40,237 nt of DNA from Patescibacteria group bacterium (GTDB taxonomy: Bacteria > Patescibacteriota > JACPGU01). The notes beneath the pieces are model-generated. The model saw only the letters and a list, made by a program, of their open reading frames with translations, was not told where the DNA came from and made no database searches. Both the position numbers and the translations under genes were made by a program. The stretch's first letter is position 1, and each line of letters begins with the position of its first letter. Location of the stretch: NCBI GenBank assembly GCA_022703645.1, contig JAKLDG010000002.1:1-40237 (forward strand), read 5' to 3'. Of this stretch, positions 217 to 36,004 are shown in pieces.

Positions 217-1926
217 TCAATCAAATGTCGGTTTCTGGTCGCCTTTCTCAACCACATTCCAAACCATACCGGCAACTGCGTCAGAAACATCTTTGCTCCC
301 TCCGTCAGGGTGGTCAACTTTTTTAGCTTTTATTGATTCCAAAGACATATACTCTTTCTCAAAAATATTTATCTTCTCGCCTTTGCCGTCAGTTATGGTG
401 TATCGGTAATAATCAATGCCTTTTAAGTGTAGCAATGCTTTGAGTGTGTCATAGGCTTTAGTATCTCGGTCAACAGATAATAGTTCTGCCTCTATGCCTC
501 GCTTGTTTAATATCTGAATACTATCAGCCGATTGCCAGCCGTCAAAAGTCACATAATTTATTTTGAATTTTCTCTCTATCATTGAATATAAAACTTGTCG
601 GACATCACTAAACATTATTTCTCCTCCCTCTGGTGCGGTTATTCTCATAATCAAATCTATAAATACTCTTGGTCTTTCTTCGCCGTCAAGTTCAATAAAG
701 CCGTCTGGTCTGCCAACTGCAATACCGCAAGAGTCTTTTTTCAAAGCAAGGTCAATATGAGCATACCGCCATTCGGAATCTTGACATACAAACCAGTCTT
801 TGAATTTTCCCTCCGGTGTCAATGGGTCTTCTCTTTCAAAATTAACATTTCTAACCACTACTTGCGCATCTCTGTCAAATGGTTCAAGAGCAAGGCTTGG
901 CTTACAACCAAAATCTCTCATAAATTTTTCAGCGTTCTCTTGGCTGGCTTTATAAAAATCCATTGGGATATTTTCCCAAATCTCTACTGGCTTTCCATTG
1001 TCGTCATATTGAGCCACGAAATTAAAAGTTTCCTTACTCATTTTCTTTGGGTCTTTTGCCTCCCAAGTTTTTTTCAAAGAGCAATGACTATCGGGGTCAT
1101 TTTTTTTATTAGCATAAATTGAATCCATTGCGTCATTGGAATATCGTGCCGAAGATATTGTGCAAGTTAGCCCGCTCCTTAATCCAAAGCGAGATGTCTG
1201 ACGATTTTTTAACATATCTCTGACTTCCTTTGCATTTGATTTTTCCTCTGTGTCTAAAAAGAAAGCAAACTCGTCCACTATCCAACTATAAACATTCATA
1301 CCAACTGGCATAGTTTCTTTTGAGTTTCCACAATAAATTACGAGATTGGCTTTTTGTGGGTCTAGTCGTTTTGAAAAGCGAGGCACTTTGAAAAATCTTA
1401 TCTCTCCTGATAATGCCTCGAAGTCAAAGTTTTGAAACCAAGCACAATTATTTATTAAATTACTCAATCCGGTAAATACAACATTCTTTGCTTGAAATGC
1501 ACTCACTCCCATATTGACAACAGCGATAGGTTTGTCATTCATTAAGCCAAGATATTCGTGCGGATTTTTTAAGCATAAAAGTATGTGCATTACATACGCC
1601 GTTAAGATAGTTGCAAGAGTTGATTTTCCCGAGCCAATTCCCCAGTATAAAATAATCTCTTTAATTCCACTATCCCACATTTTATTTACAATCTCTTTTC
1701 CCTCTTTCATCACTTCGGGATAAATGTCTTCACCAATACCAAGATAGCCATAAGCAAACTCTTCAAAGTCTGTGCAAGGCTTTTCTCTAAACTGCGGAAA
1801 TTTTAGGCAGAATGCTAACCCGAGTAGGTCTTTCTTCTCCATTGACGGCAATCGTTTGGATAGCGTCAGCAAGAAGTTTTTGCTGTCTTTCGTCGAGTTG
1901 CTCTCTTGCGTCTGTGGCAAGTCCAT
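217..1926 (-). CDS. terL: Terminase large subunit
   Basis: 569-aa ORF. Walker A-like GIGSGKST and Walker B-like WIVDEFAFF are followed by a nuclease-like C-terminal half, and the gene sits directly upstream of portal. An alternative ATG at 1842 is possible. The 5' end overlaps the preceding ORF. Confidence 0.88.
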   Translation of the reverse strand: MDLPQTQESNSTKDSKNFLLTLSKRLPSMEKKDLLGLAFCLKFPQFREKPCTDFEEFAYGYLGIGEDIYPEVMKEGKEIVNKMWDSGIKEIILYWGIGSGKSTLATILTAYVMHILLCLKNPHEYLGLMNDKPIAVVNMGVSAFQAKNVVFTGLSNLINNCAWFQNFDFEALSGEIRFFKVPRFSKRLDPQKANLVIYCGNSKETMPVGMNVYSWIVDEFAFFLDTEEKSNAKEVRDMLKNRQTSRFGLRSGLTCTISSARYSNDAMDSIYANKKNDPDSHCSLKKTWEAKDPKKMSKETFNFVAQYDDNGKPVEIWENIPMDFYKASQENAEKFMRDFGCKPSLALEPFDRDAQVVVRNVNFEREDPLTPEGKFKDWFVCQDSEWRYAHIDLALKKDSCGIAVGRPDGFIELDGEERPRVFIDLIMRITAPEGGEIMFSDVRQVLYSMIERKFKINYVTFDGWQSADSIQILNKRGIEAELLSVDRDTKAYDTLKALLHLKGIDYYRYTITDGKGEKINIFEKEYMSLESIKAKKVDHPDGGSKDVSDAVAGMVWNVVEKGDQKPTFD

Positions 1927-3289
1927 AATAGTTGTTTTGTATAAAATTATTATTAACCATAGCTTTTCTTCCTGAATTTAATATCTCGCTTAAAATGGCA
2001 ATCTGTCCGGCAAGGGTTTTGTCTTGAAGTCCGCCGTCAAGTTGTTCAAACATAACCCCACGAGATATTTTTTGAGCAAGGACAGTTGCAAGTTTATTGA
2101 CTGTATTCATTACAGTTTCCTCGTCCCTCATATCTAATTTATCAGCGTCTAGCACTTTATCAAATATCGTATTAAAACCGCACATTATTTTTTGTCCCTC
2201 TTGGGGTTCTTGGTATAGTGGACAATTCTCGGCGACATAGCAATTATTACAATACATTTGTCTAGTCGGATTAAGATATTGCCCATTCTTAAAATTAAAC
2301 ATATTTCCGCTCATTGCGTTTTTTAATCTTATCTTTCTTTTCATCTCAATTTCTGGGTTATCTCTGCAAATTAAGTGTATTTTCCCTCTATATTCTTTCG
2401 GTAAATTATCCGTTCCTTTCGTTGAGCCTGTTTCACTCCAATACTTCTTACTATGTTTATCAATATACTCTCCAAAAGTTATCCATTGCAAAGCATTCCA
2501 CTCATTGACTTCCTTTATTTCATCTTTAATAAATTTGTCATAATCTATCTTAGCACTCTCTACCTTTGGCTTTAAGAACTTTCTCATTTTCTCTTTTTCG
2601 TCTTTACCATAGGCTTCTAGTTTATTTTGGCGAAAATAGAAAGTCGCTCCAAATCTTGCACCGGCGAGCCACGAGGTTGAGTCCACTGAATAATATGGAT
2701 ACATTCTCATTTCTTGCTCTTTGGTCATAGCAAAGCCGTGAATTTTTGTCTTATGTTTTTTGGCTATATTAAATAATGACTGATTCGTTCCTTTGCTTGA
2801 ACTATGCACTATTCCGACATAGGGATATTTTTTGCACATCTCCTCAAAGTTTTCTTCTTTGTTGCCGTGATATACCGCAATCATTTTTTCTTTGGCGATA
2901 GCATACATTTCATCTCTCCACCTCATAGCTTTTTCTTCTCCAACCACATCAATAATATCTAGCTCTACTACCGCACTTAATACATCAAGATTTTCAGAAA
3001 CAAATTTTTTGTAATTTTCAAAGTAGTTATCATAGTTTCCGCCAAACTGTTCTTTGATTTTTTCACTGCCTTGTTTGATAGTAGCTTTCTTACTATCTTT
3101 TGTGCCGGATAATTCTGCACCGATAATTGAAGCGGCGCCCGAATCTAAAATGATAAATTCTACACTTTCTTTCAATAATTTTAATTTCTCTCTATCATCT
3201 TTCAAATATAAATAAGAAACCAGCACATTTTTTGGTTTGTGCTTTAAGACATAATCCATTTTTTCAAATCCTGCTAGGCAAACACGCAT
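1787..3289 (-). CDS. dpdA: DpdA-like DNA-guanine transglycosylase (TGT superfamily) with a ~215-aa C-terminal extension of unknown function (terS position)
   Basis: The N-terminal ~285 aa show the DpdA/TGT pattern as I recall it: VLVSYLYL, FIILDSGAAS, VVELDI, AVYHG, YVGI, KIHGFAMT, YYSVDSTSWL. The C-terminal part has a Cys cluster (CNNCYVAENCPLY...MCGF) followed by a helical region. ATG at 3289. An alternative ATG at 3259 has AGGA 8 nt upstream. The 3' end overlaps the terL ORF by 140 nt. Confidence 0.7.
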   Translation of the reverse strand: MRVCLAGFEKMDYVLKHKPKNVLVSYLYLKDDREKLKLLKESVEFIILDSGAASIIGAELSGTKDSKKATIKQGSEKIKEQFGGNYDNYFENYKKFVSENLDVLSAVVELDIIDVVGEEKAMRWRDEMYAIAKEKMIAVYHGNKEENFEEMCKKYPYVGIVHSSSKGTNQSLFNIAKKHKTKIHGFAMTKEQEMRMYPYYSVDSTSWLAGARFGATFYFRQNKLEAYGKDEKEKMRKFLKPKVESAKIDYDKFIKDEIKEVNEWNALQWITFGEYIDKHSKKYWSETGSTKGTDNLPKEYRGKIHLICRDNPEIEMKRKIRLKNAMSGNMFNFKNGQYLNPTRQMYCNNCYVAENCPLYQEPQEGQKIMCGFNTIFDKVLDADKLDMRDEETVMNTVNKLATVLAQKISRGVMFEQLDGGLQDKTLAGQIAILSEILNSGRKAMVNNNFIQNNYYGLATDAREQLDERQQKLLADAIQTIAVNGEERPTRVSILPKISAV

Positions 3290-4203
3290 TTTTCTATTTT
3301 CTTAATTATATTAGTTGGCGAATATATTATCTCGAACTTTCCTTGGATATGGTTTACGGCTGAACTGGCTATGGCGAAACTGGCTGAACTTTCTGATGTT
3401 TTTTTTATGTAATTGACTGCCTCTTGAAATGTATTTACTTTCCCATAGCTTGGGATATGCTCATAAGTCGATTTTCTTAATACTGGAATGCAACCGCTCA
3501 TTATTGCGTCAATGGTTGAATAGGAAAAAAACTCTAATTCACTCATTGAAAATACAAATTGCATTTTTCTTAATTGTTCCAAATATTCTTGCCGGTCATC
3601 AATATCCAATACTTGTATCTTTGTGCCTTTGACAAAAGGTTTAGCTTTTTCTCCTCCAAAACAATAAAAACTGAAATGACTTGGCAAGGCTTTGGATAAT
3701 TGCACGAAGAGGTCTAATCGTTTTGCTGGGTCGTCTATGCGATGATTATATACTACGCTGAATGGTCTAGTCTTTCTTAATACTCCTGCCTCGGGGTATA
3801 TTTCAAGGGGTAAGCCTATTTCTGTGCTTTCTATCTCAAAAGCTTTTTTTATCATTTTATCTACTTTTGGTGTTTGAGCAAAAGCCATTTTTACATTCTT
3901 AAATTCAGGATATTTTTCAGGGTTCAATAATATTGGGTGTCGGTGGAAAAATCCATAGACTTCTCTATCTTTATAATCTATTCCACAATCTAAATCAAGA
4001 CAAACCACTTTGCCTTTGTCTTTTATTTTAGAAACTAATTGCAAATATTTTTCCCGATTATAAGATTCGTTGAATTGATAAACTTTCCAATTATTCTTCT
4101 CGAACTCGGATTCTAATTGAGCAACCAATCTTCCCCAATCTGCTTGGTCTTTCTTCATTACACTTACCAAAATACCTTTGTAGGACTGTTCTTGTTTCTT
4201 CAT
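3274..4203 (-). CDS. GT-B-fold (GT4-like) glycosyltransferase-like protein embedded in the deazaguanine cluster
   Basis: 309 aa. The C-terminal half resembles the GT1/GT4 nucleotide-sugar-binding domain: HRIDDPAKRLDLFVQL...FYCFGGE...VFSMSELEFFSYSTIDAIMSGCIPVL (an E-x7-D/E-like motif followed by G-x-PV). Assignment is by motif only. Confidence 0.5.
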   Translation of the reverse strand: MKKQEQSYKGILVSVMKKDQADWGRLVAQLESEFEKNNWKVYQFNESYNREKYLQLVSKIKDKGKVVCLDLDCGIDYKDREVYGFFHRHPILLNPEKYPEFKNVKMAFAQTPKVDKMIKKAFEIESTEIGLPLEIYPEAGVLRKTRPFSVVYNHRIDDPAKRLDLFVQLSKALPSHFSFYCFGGEKAKPFVKGTKIQVLDIDDRQEYLEQLRKMQFVFSMSELEFFSYSTIDAIMSGCIPVLRKSTYEHIPSYGKVNTFQEAVNYIKKTSESSASFAIASSAVNHIQGKFEIIYSPTNIIKKIEKCVFA

Positions 4204-4882
4204 ATCTTTTTTTTGAATTAAATTTTTTATCTAAAACTCTTTTCCAATACTCTTGCGCGGTTTTTGTAGTAGCTGGATTTTTTAGAAAAATATCTCTCGT
4301 GTTTATGTGATTATATTCTAAAGCAATCCATTTCCTAAAACAACTTGGACATTCTCCGCATTGTCCCTCATCTTCACTATAACAAGACACGCTAGTTTTT
4401 AATAATTTTATTCTATCCGGTAATGATAATTTTACTTTGTCGGTTTCTAAAAACCATTTTATTATTTCACTTTTTGAATAAGCCCAAAATGGCGAACGGA
4501 TTGATATTTTTTCGCCGGTTATTTCCGATATAACCTCGCTCATTTTCATAAAAGCCCGAATATTTTTATCCGGCACATCATCGCCGTTTATTCCGATAAT
4601 ATAAACATTTTTTGCGTATTGTGCGCCGAGTAAAGCTAAAAATAAATTTCTCCCGGGTATATTGGCTTTATCTCCAATCTCAAATTTTCCTAGTGGAAAA
4701 TCTGCCTCAATAATTAGGCTGTCTTTTATTTCTTTATCAATTCTCGATAATCTTTCAAAAGTAAGCAATTCTTTTTCGGTGTAGTGAGTGAGTAGCGGAA
4801 CATAATAAGCGGTTGGCTTGCCTAGATAATACCAAGCGATTAAACTATCTATTCCTCCACTCATTAAGATAATTTCTTGCAT
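4091..4882 (-). CDS. queC: 7-cyano-7-deazaguanine (preQ0) synthase QueC
   Basis: PP-loop ILMSGGIDS near the N-terminus. The C-terminal Zn-Cys cluster is SCYSEDEGQCGECPSCFRKW. The start is set at ATG 4882; the track ORF start at 4894 is TTG. The last ~37 codons overlap the next gene by 113 nt (see finding). Confidence 0.85.
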   Translation of the reverse strand: MQEIILMSGGIDSLIAWYYLGKPTAYYVPLLTHYTEKELLTFERLSRIDKEIKDSLIIEADFPLGKFEIGDKANIPGRNLFLALLGAQYAKNVYIIGINGDDVPDKNIRAFMKMSEVISEITGEKISIRSPFWAYSKSEIIKWFLETDKVKLSLPDRIKLLKTSVSCYSEDEGQCGECPSCFRKWIALEYNHINTRDIFLKNPATTKTAQEYWKRVLDKKFNSKKRYEETRTVLQRYFGKCNEERPSRLGKIGCSIRIRVREE

Positions 4883-5148
4883 ATTGTTTTCCAATCCTTA
4901 AAAATTAAAGCTTTGTCGTCTATGTAAAACTCCCCGATAGGTTTGCCAAATACTATTCTGTCATATTTAATTCCGTATTCTCTCAAGGTCGCCATTGTTC
5001 GTTTCCGGTCGCATTGGTATCTTGAAGTGTGCAAGATTATCCGGTATTTTTCTCGAAGTCTATCAATGGCATTTTTAGTGTTTGGGATTATCTCAACTCT
5101 GTTCCGTAAAATAACTCCGTCAATGTCAATGACTATGGCTGGTTTCAT
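4864..5148 (-). CDS. Minimal HAD-superfamily phosphatase-like protein
   Basis: 94 aa with HAD motif I IVIDIDGVI (DxDG), motif II-like LHTSR, motif III-like GKP and motif IV-like YIDDKA. Its start overlaps the folE stop as ATGA. Confidence 0.55.
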   Translation of the reverse strand: MKPAIVIDIDGVILRNRVEIIPNTKNAIDRLREKYRIILHTSRYQCDRKRTMATLREYGIKYDRIVFGKPIGEFYIDDKALIFKDWKTICKKLS

Positions 5149-5693
5149 TTTTTTATTAAATTAAAAAATTCTACTCGAGTTGCCTCATTGTTTCTAAATA
5201 AGCCGGTCAATTTTGAAGTTATCATAACAGAGTTTTGCTTTTCTACTCCTCTTGCTCTCATACATAAATGCTCCGCCTCTAATACCACTGCCACGCCTTT
5301 TGGTTTTAAGGCTTTTTCTATCGCTTTTGAAACTTGCTGGGTTATTCTCTCTTGATTTTGCATACGCCTAGCATAAATGTCTAAAATTCTTGCTAATTTT
5401 GATATTCCAACTATCTTTTTTCTTGGAATATAAGCGATATGTGCTTTGCCAAAAAATGGCAATAAGTGGTGTTCGCAAGTTGAATAAAATTCAATGTCCC
5501 TCAAAATAACCATTTGCTCATTGTCCTCGTTCGTGAAAGTTGTCAAAATGTCTTCCGGTTTTTGTTTATAGCCTTCAAATATTTTGGCATAGGCTTTTCT
5601 CACTCGTTCTGGGGTTTTTACTAATCCCTCTCTTTTGCAATTCTCTCCAAGACAAGTAATTATTTCTTGGACTGCTTTGTCTATTTTTTCCAT
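5145..5693 (-). CDS. folE: GTP cyclohydrolase I (FolE)
   Basis: 182 aa with the hallmark STCEHHLLPFFGKAHIAYIP and the downstream QERITQQV motif. Confidence 0.9.
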   Translation of the reverse strand: MEKIDKAVQEIITCLGENCKREGLVKTPERVRKAYAKIFEGYKQKPEDILTTFTNEDNEQMVILRDIEFYSTCEHHLLPFFGKAHIAYIPRKKIVGISKLARILDIYARRMQNQERITQQVSKAIEKALKPKGVAVVLEAEHLCMRARGVEKQNSVMITSKLTGLFRNNEATRVEFFNLIKK

Positions 5694-5695
5694 AA

Positions 5696-5845
5696 TTAGT
5701 GCTTAAAAATTAAATAACCAATAAAAATTCCTACAATTCCTAGTATGCCTGCCAAATTGGTCGGCGCCGGAATTGGTAATCTTAAAAACGCAAATACTCC
5801 GCCTAAAATAAATCCTACTAAATATGCCTCTAATAAAATAATCAT
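5696..5845 (-). CDS. Small hydrophobic protein (49 aa, about 2 TM segments)
   Basis: Hand translation: MIILLEAYLVGFILGGVFAFLRLPIPAPTNLAGILGIVGIFIGYLIFKH. Its ATG overlaps the queE stop (ATGA) and its TAA lies 2 nt before the folE ATG. It is below the ORF-track size cutoff. Confidence 0.4.
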   Translation of the reverse strand: MIILLEAYLVGFILGGVFAFLRLPIPAPTNLAGILGIVGIFIGYLIFKH

Positions 5846-6486
5846 ATCCCTTTTTTCTTGTTAAATAAATTAACTTGCAATCTTGGACTGAAATTATATC
5901 CCATAAGCAAACACCACGACCATACTTGTTTTGCTTTTTGTTCTTGCTCTTTTTTAGTCTGTCCCTCCGGCATAATCCAAACACATTTATCCGGCACATT
6001 GTATTTCTTAATCGTTTCTTTTATAAATTTTCTTGAAGCTAAATCTGAATAGACAAATTTTACTATGGTATTTTTTTCACTAAGCATTGAGTCTGTCAAA
6101 AATACTGGTTCAGGGTTGCATTGTTTTGGTTGAAATCTTTTTTCTTTTGGCGATATGTTCCATTGATTGATATGACTAAAAATTCTTGGTTCGGGGATAA
6201 TTGTGCCATTCGTTTCAATTTCTACTTTGTAAGGACTGTATCGGTCAATCAAATCCATAATGGCTTGCTGTTGCAATAGTGGCTCTCCGCCGGTAATACA
6301 CCACTCGTCATATTTCTCTAAAAGTTTTTGGTCGGTTTTATTTATCTCTCTGCCTTTGATATGGTATTTCGTATCGCAAAAATTGCACCTTAAATTGCAA
6401 CCACTCAAACGAATAAACAATCTAGGCTTTCCGGCTGATATTCCCTCGCCTTGTATTGAATAAAAAATCTCGTTTATCTTCATCAT
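5842..6486 (-). CDS. queE: 7-carboxy-7-deazaguanine synthase QueE (radical SAM)
   Basis: 214 aa. Contains IFYSIQGEG and the radical-SAM cluster CNLRCNFCDT. Confidence 0.9.
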   Translation of the reverse strand: MMKINEIFYSIQGEGISAGKPRLFIRLSGCNLRCNFCDTKYHIKGREINKTDQKLLEKYDEWCITGGEPLLQQQAIMDLIDRYSPYKVEIETNGTIIPEPRIFSHINQWNISPKEKRFQPKQCNPEPVFLTDSMLSEKNTIVKFVYSDLASRKFIKETIKKYNVPDKCVWIMPEGQTKKEQEQKAKQVWSWCLLMGYNFSPRLQVNLFNKKKGI

Positions 6487-6626
6487 AATTCTTCAATTAT
6501 TCCAATTATTTCCGCACTTATCAAAAGCAATACAGCAATAATTAGGCTTTCTAAAAGCAAAATTAGCCCTAAAATTCTTAATATACTCTTGAGTAGACTA
6601 AATGTTTTGTGCCAATCAAAATTCAT
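6483..6626 (-). CDS. Small hydrophobic protein (47 aa, 1 TM segment)
   Basis: Hand translation: MNFDWHKTFSLLKSILRILGLILLLESLIIAVLLLISAEIIGIIEEL. Its TGA overlaps the queE ATG (ATGA) and its ATG overlaps the queD end by 11 nt. Confidence 0.4.
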   Translation of the reverse strand: MNFDWHKTFSLLKSILRILGLILLLESLIIAVLLLISAEIIGIIEEL

Positions 6627-7035
6627 TTTCTTTGTCTATGGTCGCTTCGTCTTGGCGGTCAACGCTAGGCGAATTTTCATAGTAAGTTATTGATGACTTA
6701 TCTGTTTCCCATAAAGTTATTGCAACTCTTGGTTTAATATCAAAATATTTTTTCAATCTTTGCACAACTCCTCCGTGAATAAGTTGAGCAAGATTTTCCG
6801 CCGTTGGTTCTATTGGCGCTATCACTAAATTCAAATTTTTATGGTCAAAAGCATTAAGCACATCTTTTAGTTCTGAAAAATCTATAACCATATTCCTTTT
6901 TGAAAGTTTTTCTGTTTCAATAACAATTTTTACCTTCCAATTATGTCCGTGAATTGAAGCATTGCATTTTTCCTCATATGCGTTTGTAAGTTGGTGGGCA
7001 GATTCAAACCCGCCGTGATATTCTAATCTATACAT
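6616..7035 (-). CDS. queD: 6-carboxy-5,6,7,8-tetrahydropterin synthase QueD
   Basis: Motifs FESAHQL, CNASIHGHNWKVKIVIE and VITLWETD-like. The start is set at MYRLEYHGGF (ATG 7035). The track ORF extends to 7074. Confidence 0.85.
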   Translation of the reverse strand: MYRLEYHGGFESAHQLTNAYEEKCNASIHGHNWKVKIVIETEKLSKRNMVIDFSELKDVLNAFDHKNLNLVIAPIEPTAENLAQLIHGGVVQRLKKYFDIKPRVAITLWETDKSSITYYENSPSVDRQDEATIDKENEF

Positions 7036-7106
7036 AATAAAATCAATATAATAATTAACAAAAATACAGGGCATAAAATATAACCAATCTCTAATATTTT
7101 ATTCAT
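7023..7106 (-). CDS. Tiny hydrophobic ORF (27 aa), speculative
   Basis: MNKILEIGYILCPVFLLIIILILLCID. Its ATG overlaps the stop of the 7103..7294 ORF (ATGA) and its end overlaps the queD start. It is too short to support by itself. Confidence 0.2.
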   Translation of the reverse strand: MNKILEIGYILCPVFLLIIILILLCID

Positions 7107-15718: not shown

Positions 15719-16105
15719 TTATGGTTTGTAATTAAATTCTCTTAATGTCTTTTCTCCGCAATACAAATCTCTCTCAATTCCTAAACCGAACGGCAATTTT
15801 AATTCTTGCAATTCTTTCAAACTAAAACTCCCCCACTCTTTGTCTGTAATTTCAGCAACTCCAAAAAATATGATGTCGTCCATTCTCCAACCCTCTTTTA
15901 TCAGTTGCTCTTTTTCTGCTAATGTTATCACTGCTTTATACTCTCCATTTTTTTCCATTCGGTATTGGTCAATTTCAGTAGCTAACCAAGTTCCGGCTCC
16001 GCAAGGGTTGAAAAATTTTACTATTACGATTGCGTCTGTTCCTTTTCCGTCTTGGTTTCCTATTTCTTCAAATCTCTTTTCAATTTCTTTTGTTATCAAT
16101 TTCAT
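15719..16105 (-). CDS. DUF2958-like protein
   Basis: 128 aa. VIVKFFNPCGAGTWLATEID...FFGVAEI...EWGSFSLKELQELKLPFGLGIERDLY matches my recollection of the DUF2958 pattern (KfF.P.g..tW..tE...E.G...l.EL....iERD). That family is common on conjugative plasmids. Confidence 0.55.
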   Translation of the reverse strand: MKLITKEIEKRFEEIGNQDGKGTDAIVIVKFFNPCGAGTWLATEIDQYRMEKNGEYKAVITLAEKEQLIKEGWRMDDIIFFGVAEITDKEWGSFSLKELQELKLPFGLGIERDLYCGEKTLREFNYKP

Positions 16106-17337: not shown

Positions 17338-17727
17338 TTATTTAACTAATTCTTCAACTTGTGTCTTGTGAAACAAGTGATAGGTTTTCGGATAAATCAT
17401 ATCTTCCAATTCTTCTCCCTCTTTATTGACTGGGTGTATCCAAGTCAATCCTTTCACTTTTGATTTTTCTCCTTTGATAACTTTGAAGCCTGCCTCTTTC
17501 CATTTATTGAATGTCTTGCAATCTACATAAGGGATACCCTCTAAATTTTGTTCTCTCATTGCTAGTAGTGTGAAATAAAAACTATAATAACTGTAATTGC
17601 TTCCTGCTTCTCGATGTAATGCTTTGGCTGTTTCGTCGTTGTCTGCTAATTTTTTACTAGCTTGCCATTGTTCTCTAAGGCTTTTGAAATACTCTTTTTT
17701 TTCTTCTTTTGTAAATGTTTTTTTCAT
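17338..17727 (-). CDS. ArdC N-terminal-domain-like (DUF1738-like) ssDNA-binding protein
   Basis: 129 aa. NYSYYSFYFTLLAMREQNLEGIPYVDCKTFNKWKEAGFKVIKGEKSKV...YHLFHKTQVE resembles the ArdC-N pattern (YsG.N...L...TfkQ....G..VrKGEk...vFn..Q). It is the first gene after the early promoter. Confidence 0.5.
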   Translation of the reverse strand: MKKTFTKEEKKEYFKSLREQWQASKKLADNDETAKALHREAGSNYSYYSFYFTLLAMREQNLEGIPYVDCKTFNKWKEAGFKVIKGEKSKVKGLTWIHPVNKEGEELEDMIYPKTYHLFHKTQVEELVK

Positions 17728-34654: not shown

Positions 34655-36004
34655 TTATATACAACCTTTACTTTTTAGCAGTTGCATATCTTGTATTCTG
34701 ATATTAACATATTCTCCTTTTTTTTGCAACTTGCCTTGATATTTGAAATCACTCTTTGCGATTATTCCCTCGGAAGTTATCTCCTCTATGGCTTTTCTCT
34801 CCGGTAATTCCATTTTTTCTAATTTCTTTAACCATTTATCATTAAATAATTCCTCATTCTCTCTAGCGTAAGTGAATCGGTCGGCACTCTTGCTCAAAAA
34901 ATGAGTAATGGCATTTCTGACATATCCGAATTTCTTTTTTTTCTGCATTGCTCTTAGGAAAAAATCAACATCTTCGCCACCATTCATAAATTCTTCATCT
35001 AATCCGCCTAATTCTTCCCAAATGTCTTTCTTGACCTTAAAACAAAATCCACTAGGCATACTTTCATATCCGGCAATATCCTCTAGGCTTTTTACAATTA
35101 CTCCGTTTTCTAATTTTATGCTTATGCCGTATTTAGTCACTTTTCTGTCAGGAATGTATTGAGCAATGCCGGTAATATCGCTATCGTCCTTTACCATTTT
35201 CATTAAGTATTCGTGAACTGGGATAGTATCGTCATTCAAGAAAATTAAATTTTCTGTTTCTGCCAGTCTAGCTCCTTTATTACAACTCTCGGAAAATGTG
35301 CCACCGCTAATTATGATAATATTAAATAACTTATTGTCTAATGTTTTTAAGCAGTCTGCCAATAGTTCGTGCTGGTCGTGGTGGGGGATAATAATATCAG
35401 CAATTTTTTTAAGGTGTTTCTTATATAAATATTTCATCCATTTTTCACTATCATTGCCGGTTGAAATTCCTCCCGGTCGGTTGAATGTTTTGAACAATAT
35501 CTTATCGCAAAAAACTGGTTTGTGTCCGGCTCGAGTTAGTCTTATCCATAATTCCCAATCATCATATCTTCGCATATCAGGACTAAATTTTGGTTTTGCA
35601 CTGGCTCTTATCAATGACATTGTGCTAATTCCGTGAAAGTAGTCAATAAATTCTTTGCTCTCCATATCTTCCGGCATTTCTCCTTTGTTGATATTAAATT
35701 CTGTCCGGTCGATAATAAATTTCCCGAAAGCCCAATCAGCCCATTTATTTTCCTGCAAGGTTTGGTATAAATTACTTAGACAATCCTTATCTAAATCTAA
35801 GTCATTATCACAAAAAAATAAATACTCTCCTTTGGCTTTTTTTAATCCCTCATTTCTTGCCCAACTAGCGCCTTTAGCGTCTTTATCAATAATTTCAATT
35901 ATCTCAATATTATTGTAGGTCTGTTCTTTAACCGATTTCAAAGATTCGTTTTTCTCTGTTGCTCGGTTTGGAATAATTATTGATATTAGTGGCAATTTTT
36001 TCAT
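34655..36004 (-). CDS. Two-domain GT2-family (GT-A fold) glycosyltransferase
   Basis: Domain 1: LISIIIPNRATEKNESLKSVKEQTYNNIEIIEIID...GASWARNEGLKKAKGEYLFFCDNDLDL (DxD). Domain 2: ADIIIPHHDQHELLADCLKTL...SCNKGARLAETENLIFLNDDTIP. Confidence 0.75.
   Translation of the reverse strand: MKKLPLISIIIPNRATEKNESLKSVKEQTYNNIEIIEIIDKDAKGASWARNEGLKKAKGEYLFFCDNDLDLDKDCLSNLYQTLQENKWADWAFGKFIIDRTEFNINKGEMPEDMESKEFIDYFHGISTMSLIRASAKPKFSPDMRRYDDWELWIRLTRAGHKPVFCDKILFKTFNRPGGISTGNDSEKWMKYLYKKHLKKIADIIIPHHDQHELLADCLKTLDNKLFNIIIISGGTFSESCNKGARLAETENLIFLNDDTIPVHEYLMKMVKDDSDITGIAQYIPDRKVTKYGISIKLENGVIVKSLEDIAGYESMPSGFCFKVKKDIWEELGGLDEEFMNGGEDVDFFLRAMQKKKKFGYVRNAITHFLSKSADRFTYARENEELFNDKWLKKLEKMELPERKAIEEITSEGIIAKSDFKYQGKLQKKGEYVNIRIQDMQLLKSKGCI

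Follow-up and report, generated by a model that had tools for sequence, protein, structure and literature searches.

What might a glycosyltransferase be doing in a phage operon whose other genes make a 7-deazaguanine and place it in DNA? The window (the whole stretch of DNA that was analysed, 40,237 nucleotides (nt) of contig JAKLDG010000002.1, filed under a Patescibacteria group bacterium) is a whole siphovirus genome of ~40.2 kb with a GC content of about 35%, and at positions 1787 to 7106 it carries genes for FolE, QueD, QueE and QueC, for a DpdA-type DNA guanine transglycosylase and, between queC and dpdA, an open reading frame (ORF) of 309 amino acids (aa) which, by profile and predicted fold, is a divergent GT4-type (GT-B) glycosyltransferase (GT). 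The reading that I favour, with a probability of about 0.5 for the whole of it, is that the operon makes preQ0 for DpdA to exchange into DNA and that the GT glycosylates the deazaguanine, probably after its insertion. The eight 7-deazaguanine modifications of DNA described so far are all small variants at C7, and phage DNA is not known to carry sugars on any base but pyrimidines; if the reading is true, this product would be the first case of a purine analogue in DNA that bears a sugar.

The company kept by relatives of the GT provides the first part of the answer. Family members were located at 34 distinct loci, comprising the window, contigs from metagenomes, Logan, IMG/VR and metagenome-assembled genomes (MAGs; L001-L039), and seven cultured lineages (ACP17, the PA5oct group, Synechococcus phage BUCT-ZZ01, PhiXhv-12/Ep026/Ep032, Phosso, BUDD/X1 and BCSR5), and 7-deazaguanine genes lie within 7 kb of the GT at 33 of them, the exception being a contig of 3 kb. 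A gene of the dpdA/tRNA-guanine transglycosylase (TGT) type is present at 28/34 loci, usually adjoining the GT and often overlapping it at the stop and start codons; the association is seen in all seven GT-bearing cultured lineages and spans three DpdA types, clusters with QueC only, with a glutamine-amidotransferase-QueC (Gat-QueC) or without QueC (DpdL-type), and phages of 40-469 kb. In ACP17, the family member is gp124, beside the DpdA of that phage. These loci show that the GT family is dedicated to phage 7-deazaguanine operons, and the sequence-only reading of this DNA, which had looked to co-occurrence of the 309-aa homologues with que and dpdA genes as a check on its glycosyltransferase idea, is borne out on this point. 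A scan of 185,579 species genomes with the 'GRPE' subgroup found no relative, and a scan of the genome collection with a second subgroup returned five MAG contigs only, all phage-like. Among 50,697 phage records the GT gene occurs in just 23, and when these are compared by name with the 99 records that hold a DpdA of the window's type, Pseudomonas is the only genus name shared; the GT searches also turned up no phage known to have deazaguanine DNA characterised by mass spectrometry (9g, CAjan, iggy and others). This is the distribution of an optional add-on, as one would expect of a tailoring enzyme more than of a core cofactor.

The identity of the 309-aa protein emerged from its family. The feature is as follows:

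3274-4203, minus strand: GT4-type (GT-B) glycosyltransferase, 309 aa, identified by family alignment, AlphaFold2 (AF2) modelling with Foldseek, and synteny

Searched singly, the protein found itself only in a word-indexed homology search, no relative in a scan of viral contigs and noise in a direct sequence search of the PDB; it lacks a Glycos_transf_1 match above the gathering score (some relatives do exceed the cut-off), and its single-sequence AF2 model was poor, with a predicted local distance difference test score (pLDDT) of 37. It was an exhaustive HMMER search that revealed the family, through 14 weak relatives, and these, together with members located in viral contigs and phage genomes, were built into a 24-member family alignment (A3), 18 members of which match Glycos_transf_1. 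In window numbering, H87, P132, E224 and Y247 are invariant in A3 and R155 is nearly so (at least 90% of members), a Lys following it in most (K161 in the window), and the EX7E-type motif of the window protein is E224..D232. The family profile matches the C-domain of the mannosyltransferase WbaZ-1 and other GT4 chains. Modelled from the alignment, the window GT reaches a pLDDT of 79.7 and a predicted template-modelling score (pTM) of 0.79, with two Rossmann-like domains and a cleft between them, and Foldseek places this model, at a probability of 1.00, with BshA, TarM, MshA and PimA (E 1e-9 to 1e-7 for these four) and with GtfA, SdgB, the glycosyltransferase of phage HY126 and tetrahydrobiopterin glucosyltransferases, the top matches including GT4 enzymes that use UDP-N-acetylglucosamine (UDP-GlcNAc) and phage DNA glycosyltransferases; among models of viral GTs, that of ACP17 and DNA alpha-GTs also match. 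The sequence-only reading had called this ORF GT4-like and proposed structure and profile searches as the arbiter, and both now place the protein inside GT-B/GT4. Its start is ambiguous: an ATG at 4203 (309 aa) has no Shine-Dalgarno sequence and makes the ORF overlap the 3' end of queC by 113 nt (4091-4203), and a TTG at 4128 (284 aa, the gene callers' choice) is preceded by GGGGA and would drop the first beta-strand of the N-domain.

The next step is to ask which named enzymes stand nearest, and on profile comparison the closest named family is QTMAN/DUF3524, the queuosine mannosyltransferases, as a sister to the phage GT family. One match of the exhaustive HMMER search carried the Pfam domain QTMAN_N, and A3 compared through hhalign with a 24-member alignment of bacterial DUF3524/QTMAN-like proteins (A8) gave 99.85% probability (E 1.6e-30) over 286 columns covering both domains. 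A hidden Markov model (HMM) of A3, which is free of QTMAN-like sequences, scores 120/120 QTMAN-like proteins at 54-118 bits (median 78), compared with 30.6 for the best PDB chain; reciprocally, a QTMAN-like HMM scores 24/24 phage members at 24-69 bits (window 35.5), the best PDB chain scoring 39. The best generic GT4 protein in a search of 5.8 billion proteins reaches 56.6 bits. These controls, PDB chains of many GT4 families and a few generic GT4 proteins, are not exhaustive. Most members of both families have an HRWxxDKxPExF motif (window version NHRIDDPAKRLDLF), and an E(T/F)FG...E motif is also common to the two. Strict membership of QTMAN was considered and rejected: none of the 24 A3 members matches QTMAN_N (PF12038/DUF3524) at E<=1, the N-domains aligning only at profile level through hhalign, and it is because of this that I describe a sister family and not a member.

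QTMAN, an alpha-mannosyltransferase, is likewise of the GT4 type and adds its sugar to a 7-deazaguanine nucleotide that is part of a nucleic acid: as GTDC1 (PF12038 + PF00534) it makes mannosyl-queuosine in mammalian tRNA (PMC11755703). Unlike QTMAN, the phage proteins have an N-terminal acceptor domain that is not recognisably QTMAN_N, and the phage genes lie beside dpdA whereas the bacterial QTMAN-like genes are solitary; two of the latter were inspected and stand alone, away from que genes, in uninformative neighbourhoods. Phage clusters of this kind make no queuosine, and the cyclopentenediol acceptor is therefore absent. The parallel with glycosylated queuosine that had been drawn from the sequence alone is strengthened by this relationship, and the accompanying statement that such queuosines are known only in eukaryotic tRNA needs a caveat: mannosyl-queuosine has, as far as I know, been described only there, but thousands of bacterial QTMAN-like proteins exist (3,956 matches to the QTMAN_N + GT1 architecture at E<=1e-3, in Planctomycetota, Gammaproteobacteria and others).

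The GT is embedded in a preQ0 pathway that is complete by homology (GTP cyclohydrolase I, QueD, QueE and QueC, by Pfam, PHROG, NCBIfam and motifs). All genes of the region are on the minus strand, and apart from the GT, which lies between queC and dpdA, they are, in gene order:

6616-7074, minus strand: queD, 6-carboxytetrahydropterin synthase, 152 aa (Pfam PTPS 5e-25; phrog_2389 QueD-like 9e-21; TIGR03367 1e-20; HGHNWKV)
5842-6486, minus strand: queE, 7-carboxy-7-deazaguanine synthase, radical SAM, 214 aa (phrog_2076 QueE-like 8e-50; NCBIfam QueE models 5e-26 to 1e-12; IQGEG, CNLRCNFCDT)
5696-5845, minus strand: 49-aa hydrophobic ORF with two transmembrane (TM) segments, bridging queE and folE, also gene-called on metagenome contigs
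5145-5693, minus strand: folE, GTP cyclohydrolase I, 182 aa (Pfam GTP_cyclohydroI 6e-75; NF006825 3e-78, above cut-off; CEHHLLPFFG)
4864-5148, minus strand: cap-less mini-HAD phosphatase-like protein, 94 aa (four HAD motifs; phrog_1238 1e-14; Pfam Hydrolase_6 1e-5)
4091-4894, minus strand: queC, 7-cyano-7-deazaguanine synthase (Pfam QueC 4e-16; phrog_1550 9e-20; SGGIDS, CGECPSC)
1787-3289, minus strand: dpdA-type DNA guanine transglycosylase, 500 aa (phrog_887 'queuine tRNA-ribosyltransferase' 3e-40, full length; catalytic Asp motifs ILDSGA, SVDSTSW)
217-1926, minus strand: terL, terminase large subunit (phrog_2 4e-10; PF27249 on contig copies)

The region is thus, as shown by homology, a phage operon predicted to make preQ0 from GTP (FolE, QueD, QueE, QueC) and to exchange it for guanine in DNA (DpdA). 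Every motif quoted in the sequence-only reading is present in the minus-strand translations, and profile matches and tblastn to DpdA genes support the cluster that it proposed; its description of five contiguous, translationally coupled genes stands in part, given that from queE onward (queE, the 49-aa ORF, folE, mini-HAD, queC, GT, dpdA, terL) neighbours overlap or nearly abut, but queD and queE are uncoupled, 129 nt apart, and the 49-aa ORF, which has a 4-nt overlap with the queE stop and finishes 2 nt short of the folE start, was missed. Translation of queC probably begins some codons into the ORF (263 aa by the gene callers). The window QueC has no glutamine-amidotransferase domain, and, in line with the sequence-only reading, no QueF, Gat-QueC or ArcS was found among the ORFs scanned, the Pfam scan covering those outside the mostly tail-module stretch at ~20-34 kb. 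DpdA of the window matches annotated DpdA/TGT genes in 99 of the phage records by tblastn, including those of Escherichia, Pseudomonas, Mycobacterium and Streptomyces phages, and is 37% identical to the 503-aa DpdA of locus L026, which scans for close relatives found again and nothing else; neither a Pfam TGT match nor a PDB sequence match was obtained. Its C-terminal extension of ~210 aa (1787-2420, minus strand) is Cys-rich, with a Cys cluster (YCNNCY...CP.YQEP) common to the L026 protein, and may be a metal-binding or DNA-binding domain.

How, then, would these proteins act together? FolE, QueD, QueE and QueC would convert GTP to preQ0, DpdA would swap preQ0 for guanine in phage DNA, and the GT would take a nucleoside diphosphate (NDP) sugar from the host and transfer the sugar to the 7-deazaguanine, most probably once DpdA has placed the base in DNA, yielding a sugar-bearing deazaguanine that might protect virion DNA beyond the level of dPreQ0; the mini-HAD would be an optional accessory phosphatase, perhaps acting on a sugar phosphate or a nucleotide. 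Pockets of the TGT family are tight and read the 2-amino group; action after insertion is favoured because of these pockets, because three DpdA types share the same partner and because GT-B enzymes acting on modified bases of phage DNA are well known. That virion DNA of this phage and also of ACP17, PA5oct, PhiXhv-12 and BUCT-ZZ01 carries a glycosylated 7-deazaguanine, made by a GT family sharing ancestry with QTMAN, is a more tentative proposal to which I would give somewhat less than an even chance. The sugar might be accepted by N2, as proposed for HuiG, which adds a sugar to a derivative of preQ0 (bioRxiv 10.64898/2026.04.15.718813), by the nitrogen of an amide or amidine, or by C7 itself. 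The N-terminal motif of the GT differs by cluster type (GRPE, ETRYT, HDETI and NRY subgroups), a pattern that would suit an acceptor changing along with the C7 group but that is confounded by phylogeny.

A number of observations weigh against the proposal that the GT glycosylates deazaguanine. The sugar in GT-bearing phages is a prediction, and the C7 nitrile of preQ0 offers no nucleophile, which leaves N2 or O6, an amide of the 7-amido-7-deazaguanine (ADG) type or an unforeseen group as the acceptor; G+ clusters and QueC-less clusters also contain family members, so that a C7 group common to all of them cannot be what the GTs act on. Enzymes for sugar activation are not encoded in the window. 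The window GT is the shortest and most divergent family member, 15-23% identical to the others, with no Pfam match above threshold (only Exostosin_GT47 at 20.9 bits, under the cut-off), an EX7D in which Asp replaces the second Glu, and a reduced N-terminal acceptor domain of ~4 strands from which ~25 residues are absent after His87. The family is mostly acidic (median isoelectric point (pI) 5.8) with no obvious DNA-binding charge, and neither pI nor charge told action on DNA apart from action on small molecules. Finally, the mini-HAD recurs, again immediately upstream of queC, in only one further cluster lineage (L007/L008, an 87-aa homologue with the same motif layout), and homologues lie in unrelated contexts, such as the one in a Porphyromonas phage.

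Some of these points suit other explanations. Acting before insertion, the GT would glycosylate a free 7-deazaguanine base or an intermediate (7-carboxy-7-deazaguanine (CDG) or a pterin), with DpdA inserting the glycosylated base or the glycoside serving for storage or regulation; the family is acidic, as are GT4 enzymes that act on small molecules, its Foldseek matches include BshA, MshA and the tetrahydrobiopterin glucosyltransferases, FolE, QueD and QueE are steps common to all cluster types, and methyltransferase and GT pairs in L007, L011 and L016 echo the HuiC and HuiG of huimycin (bioRxiv 10.64898/2026.04.15.718813). The GT4 Foldseek scores are, however, all similar and single out no small-molecule enzyme, and three unrelated DpdA types would each need adaptation. 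Together with the tight TGT pockets, for which a bulky glycosylated base is an unlikely substrate, this leaves action before insertion an unlikely account. The divergence of the window protein (its length and low identity, the missing residues after His87 with four N-domain strands in the model, the EX7D and the lack of a Pfam match above threshold) might instead mark a decaying or inactive copy, with virion DNA carrying plain dPreQ0, the default product of the sequence-only reading; but the ORF is intact and coupled to dpdA, an identical protein is found on contigs from three independent samples, the C-domain is modelled very confidently and H87, R155, E224 and Y247 are retained, all of which makes decay improbable.

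About as improbable is a GT-fold protein that transfers no sugar to DNA and instead assists DpdA as a subunit required for exchanging the base or handling the DNA, much as bacterial DpdA has DpdB and eukaryotic TGT has QTRT2, for although adjacency to dpdA is near-universal, with overlapping stop and start, and dpdL and dpdA of ACP17 were inactive without other phage genes (PMC10516641), the canonical donor-binding residues of GT4 enzymes are kept family-wide and PIG-L and Gfo/Idh/MocA partners make little sense for a scaffold. The DpdA phages known to have been characterised by mass spectrometry, absent from the GT searches, modify their DNA nonetheless. Might the GT act on RNA as QTMAN does, glycosylating queuosine-type bases in host or phage tRNA and so tuning translation? 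The kinship with QTMAN/DUF3524 invites the thought, but no A3 member matches QTMAN_N, the window lacks the QueF, QueA and QueG needed for queuosine, the genomic link is with dpdA, whose product works on DNA, and not with tgt, and the bacterial QTMAN-like genes stand apart from que genes; I hold it to be slightly less probable still. Lastly, glycosyltransferases that modify the cell surface or virion proteins are frequent in phages, and the window has a second one (GT2), yet a placement beside deazaguanine genes that is merely coincidental is effectively refuted by synteny at 33/34 loci in very different phage types, given that a DpdA of such type occurs in only 99/50,697 phage records.

Glycosylation of the inserted deazaguanine, the reading I prefer, can also be judged against systems that are already known. 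Phage systems with FolE, QueD, QueE, QueC and DpdA (CAjan, 9g, iggy; PMC6884629, PMC10516641) have the same five core genes beside packaging genes, and their anti-restriction role is presumed for the window cluster; what the window adds is the GT4 glycosyltransferase, the mini-HAD and the long Cys-rich extension of DpdA. Eight DNA deazaguanines are described with tailoring enzymes (QueF, Gat-QueC, ArcS, DpdL, DpdM, DpdN), none bearing a sugar and with no glycosyltransferase mentioned (PMC6884629, PMC10516641), and in the literature searched no paper connected DpdA clusters with a glycosyltransferase, although the 2024 deazaguanine review in Microbiology and Molecular Biology Reviews may mention one. 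The comparison suggests a known DpdA system extended by a glycosyltransferase, with a sugar-decorated deazaguanine in DNA not yet described. Phage DNA glycosyltransferases (T4 alpha/beta-GT on 5-hydroxymethylcytosine; arabinosylation of 5-hydroxycytosine in HY126, RB69 and DLP3; PMC13326640) are likewise GT-B enzymes working on an already modified base in phage DNA, and the HY126 GT and DNA alpha-GTs are among the structural matches of the window model; unlike them, the window enzyme would have a purine analogue and not a pyrimidine as its target, with no hydroxymethyl or hydroxyl handle and no genes for a sugar kinase, pyrophosphorylase or isomerase; among the ORFs scanned there was neither a thymidylate-synthase-like hydroxymethylase nor a hydroxylase to make a pyrimidine handle of the T4 type. 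The huimycin/dapiramicin pathways (HuiC + HuiG; bioRxiv 10.64898/2026.04.15.718813) also build a preQ0 core and then use a glycosyltransferase on a deazapurine (HuiG being compared by description only), and L007, L011 and L016 similarly pair a methyltransferase with the GT, but those are actinobacterial secondary-metabolite clusters without dpdA whose product is a free nucleoside-like metabolite. BshA/MshA with BshB/MshB offer top structural matches and a GT plus deacetylase pairing that recurs, with PIG-L-like proteins, in L015, L016 and PhiXhv-12, whereas the window has no deacetylase, their acceptors are malate or inositol phosphate, and the sequence similarity is weak (13-14 bits).

If true, the reading would point to a new chemical class of DNA hypermodification, with a bearing on evasion of restriction, CRISPR and type IV defences and on sequencing, and would draw an evolutionary link between deazaguanine glycosylation in DNA and in tRNA. 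It could also account for the failure of ACP17 dpdL and dpdA in Escherichia coli, where they were inactive without other phage genes (PMC10516641), and for the uncharacterised modified G in PA5oct DNA (PMC12191111). Since several cultured phages carry the GT gene, the hypothesis is directly testable. Overall, the preQ0/DpdA operon and the GT4 identity put forward in the sequence-only reading have been strengthened, and its mini-HAD link is weak.

Partners of the GT in related clusters expand the repertoire further. A Gfo/Idh/MocA-like oxidoreductase accompanies the GT in 7 loci and a PIG-L-like deacetylase in 3, and enzymes of both kinds are classical sugar-tailoring partners. The former, an NAD(P) oxidoreductase of ~240-290 aa, adjoins the GT in Gat-QueC clusters and in QueC clusters (L002, L006, L009, L012, L014, L015, L023, L028) and could tailor the sugar or reduce the base. 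PIG-L/LmbE-like deacetylases adjoin the GT at L015 5589-6113, L016 7468-8001 and L028 7381-7989, an arrangement that hints, by analogy with bacillithiol and mycothiol synthesis, at transfer of GlcNAc followed by deacetylation, and PhiXhv-12 has a GNAT fusion protein near the GT. S-adenosylmethionine (SAM)-dependent methyltransferases adjoin it at L007 5955-6503, L011 48-725 and L016 8912-9598, recalling the HuiC + HuiG pair by which preQ0 is methylated and then glycosylated on the way to huimycin. In QueC-less clusters, the neighbour is a protein of 108-128 aa without a Pfam match (L022 6022-6354, L024 7600-7929, L031 5635-5997 and L037-L039; also L029 7799-8182, which is ACP17 gp125, and L030 7141-7518, which is PA5oct gp166), and a distinct protein of 120-145 aa recurs in L025-L027. 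Related clusters also contain a QueE interrupted by an intein (PT-HINT/Intein_splicing; L006 80-2023) and FolE fused into proteins of 596 aa (L022 4235-6025) and 925 aa (L024 4826-7603).

On the mini-HAD, the sequence-only reading was right about position, and its idea of a role in the pathway stays tentative. A minimal 94-aa HAD phosphatase-like ORF does lie between folE and queC, with all four HAD motifs kept (D8xD10, T41, K69, D77D78) and Pfam scores slightly under the cut-offs (Hydrolase_6 25.8 vs 27; Hydrolase_3 20.4 vs 20.9), and it weakly matches a 134-aa chain, 9iqw, deposited as 'Capsule biosynthesis protein' (E 0.098), which may come from the HY126 deposition series. Viral contigs yielded no relative. 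Other homologues lie beside nucleotide-sugar genes in Enterococcus phage 9183 and, in Synechococcus phage S-SKS1, amid genes of sugar metabolism (a transaldolase and a nucleotide-sugar epimerase), and it is because phage homologues lie in such mixed contexts that I do not count the protein as a component of the pathway; the link is suggestive only. In phage DNA arabinosylation, a small HAD, AfhF, prepares the sugar donor and works with the glycosyltransferase (PMC13326640), so a small HAD phosphatase accompanies a GT there as in the window.

Elsewhere in the genome, which recurs in three independent metagenomes, terL overlaps the 3' end of dpdA and marks a module boundary, a tape measure protein, Dit, a DnaD-like loader and a holin are also encoded, and the 49-aa two-TM ORF is possibly a transporter or anchor. 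The second glycosyltransferase (34655-36004, minus strand) is a 449-aa GT2 enzyme (PF00535, GtrB-like PHROG) in the structural module, with the major capsid gene on one side and connector genes on the other, and could target virion proteins or the host surface. In the early region, an ArdC-N-like anti-restriction domain protein (E 2e-4, slightly under the cut-off) and a DUF2958 protein, at 17338-17727 and 15719-16105 (both minus strand), could provide a second anti-defence layer.

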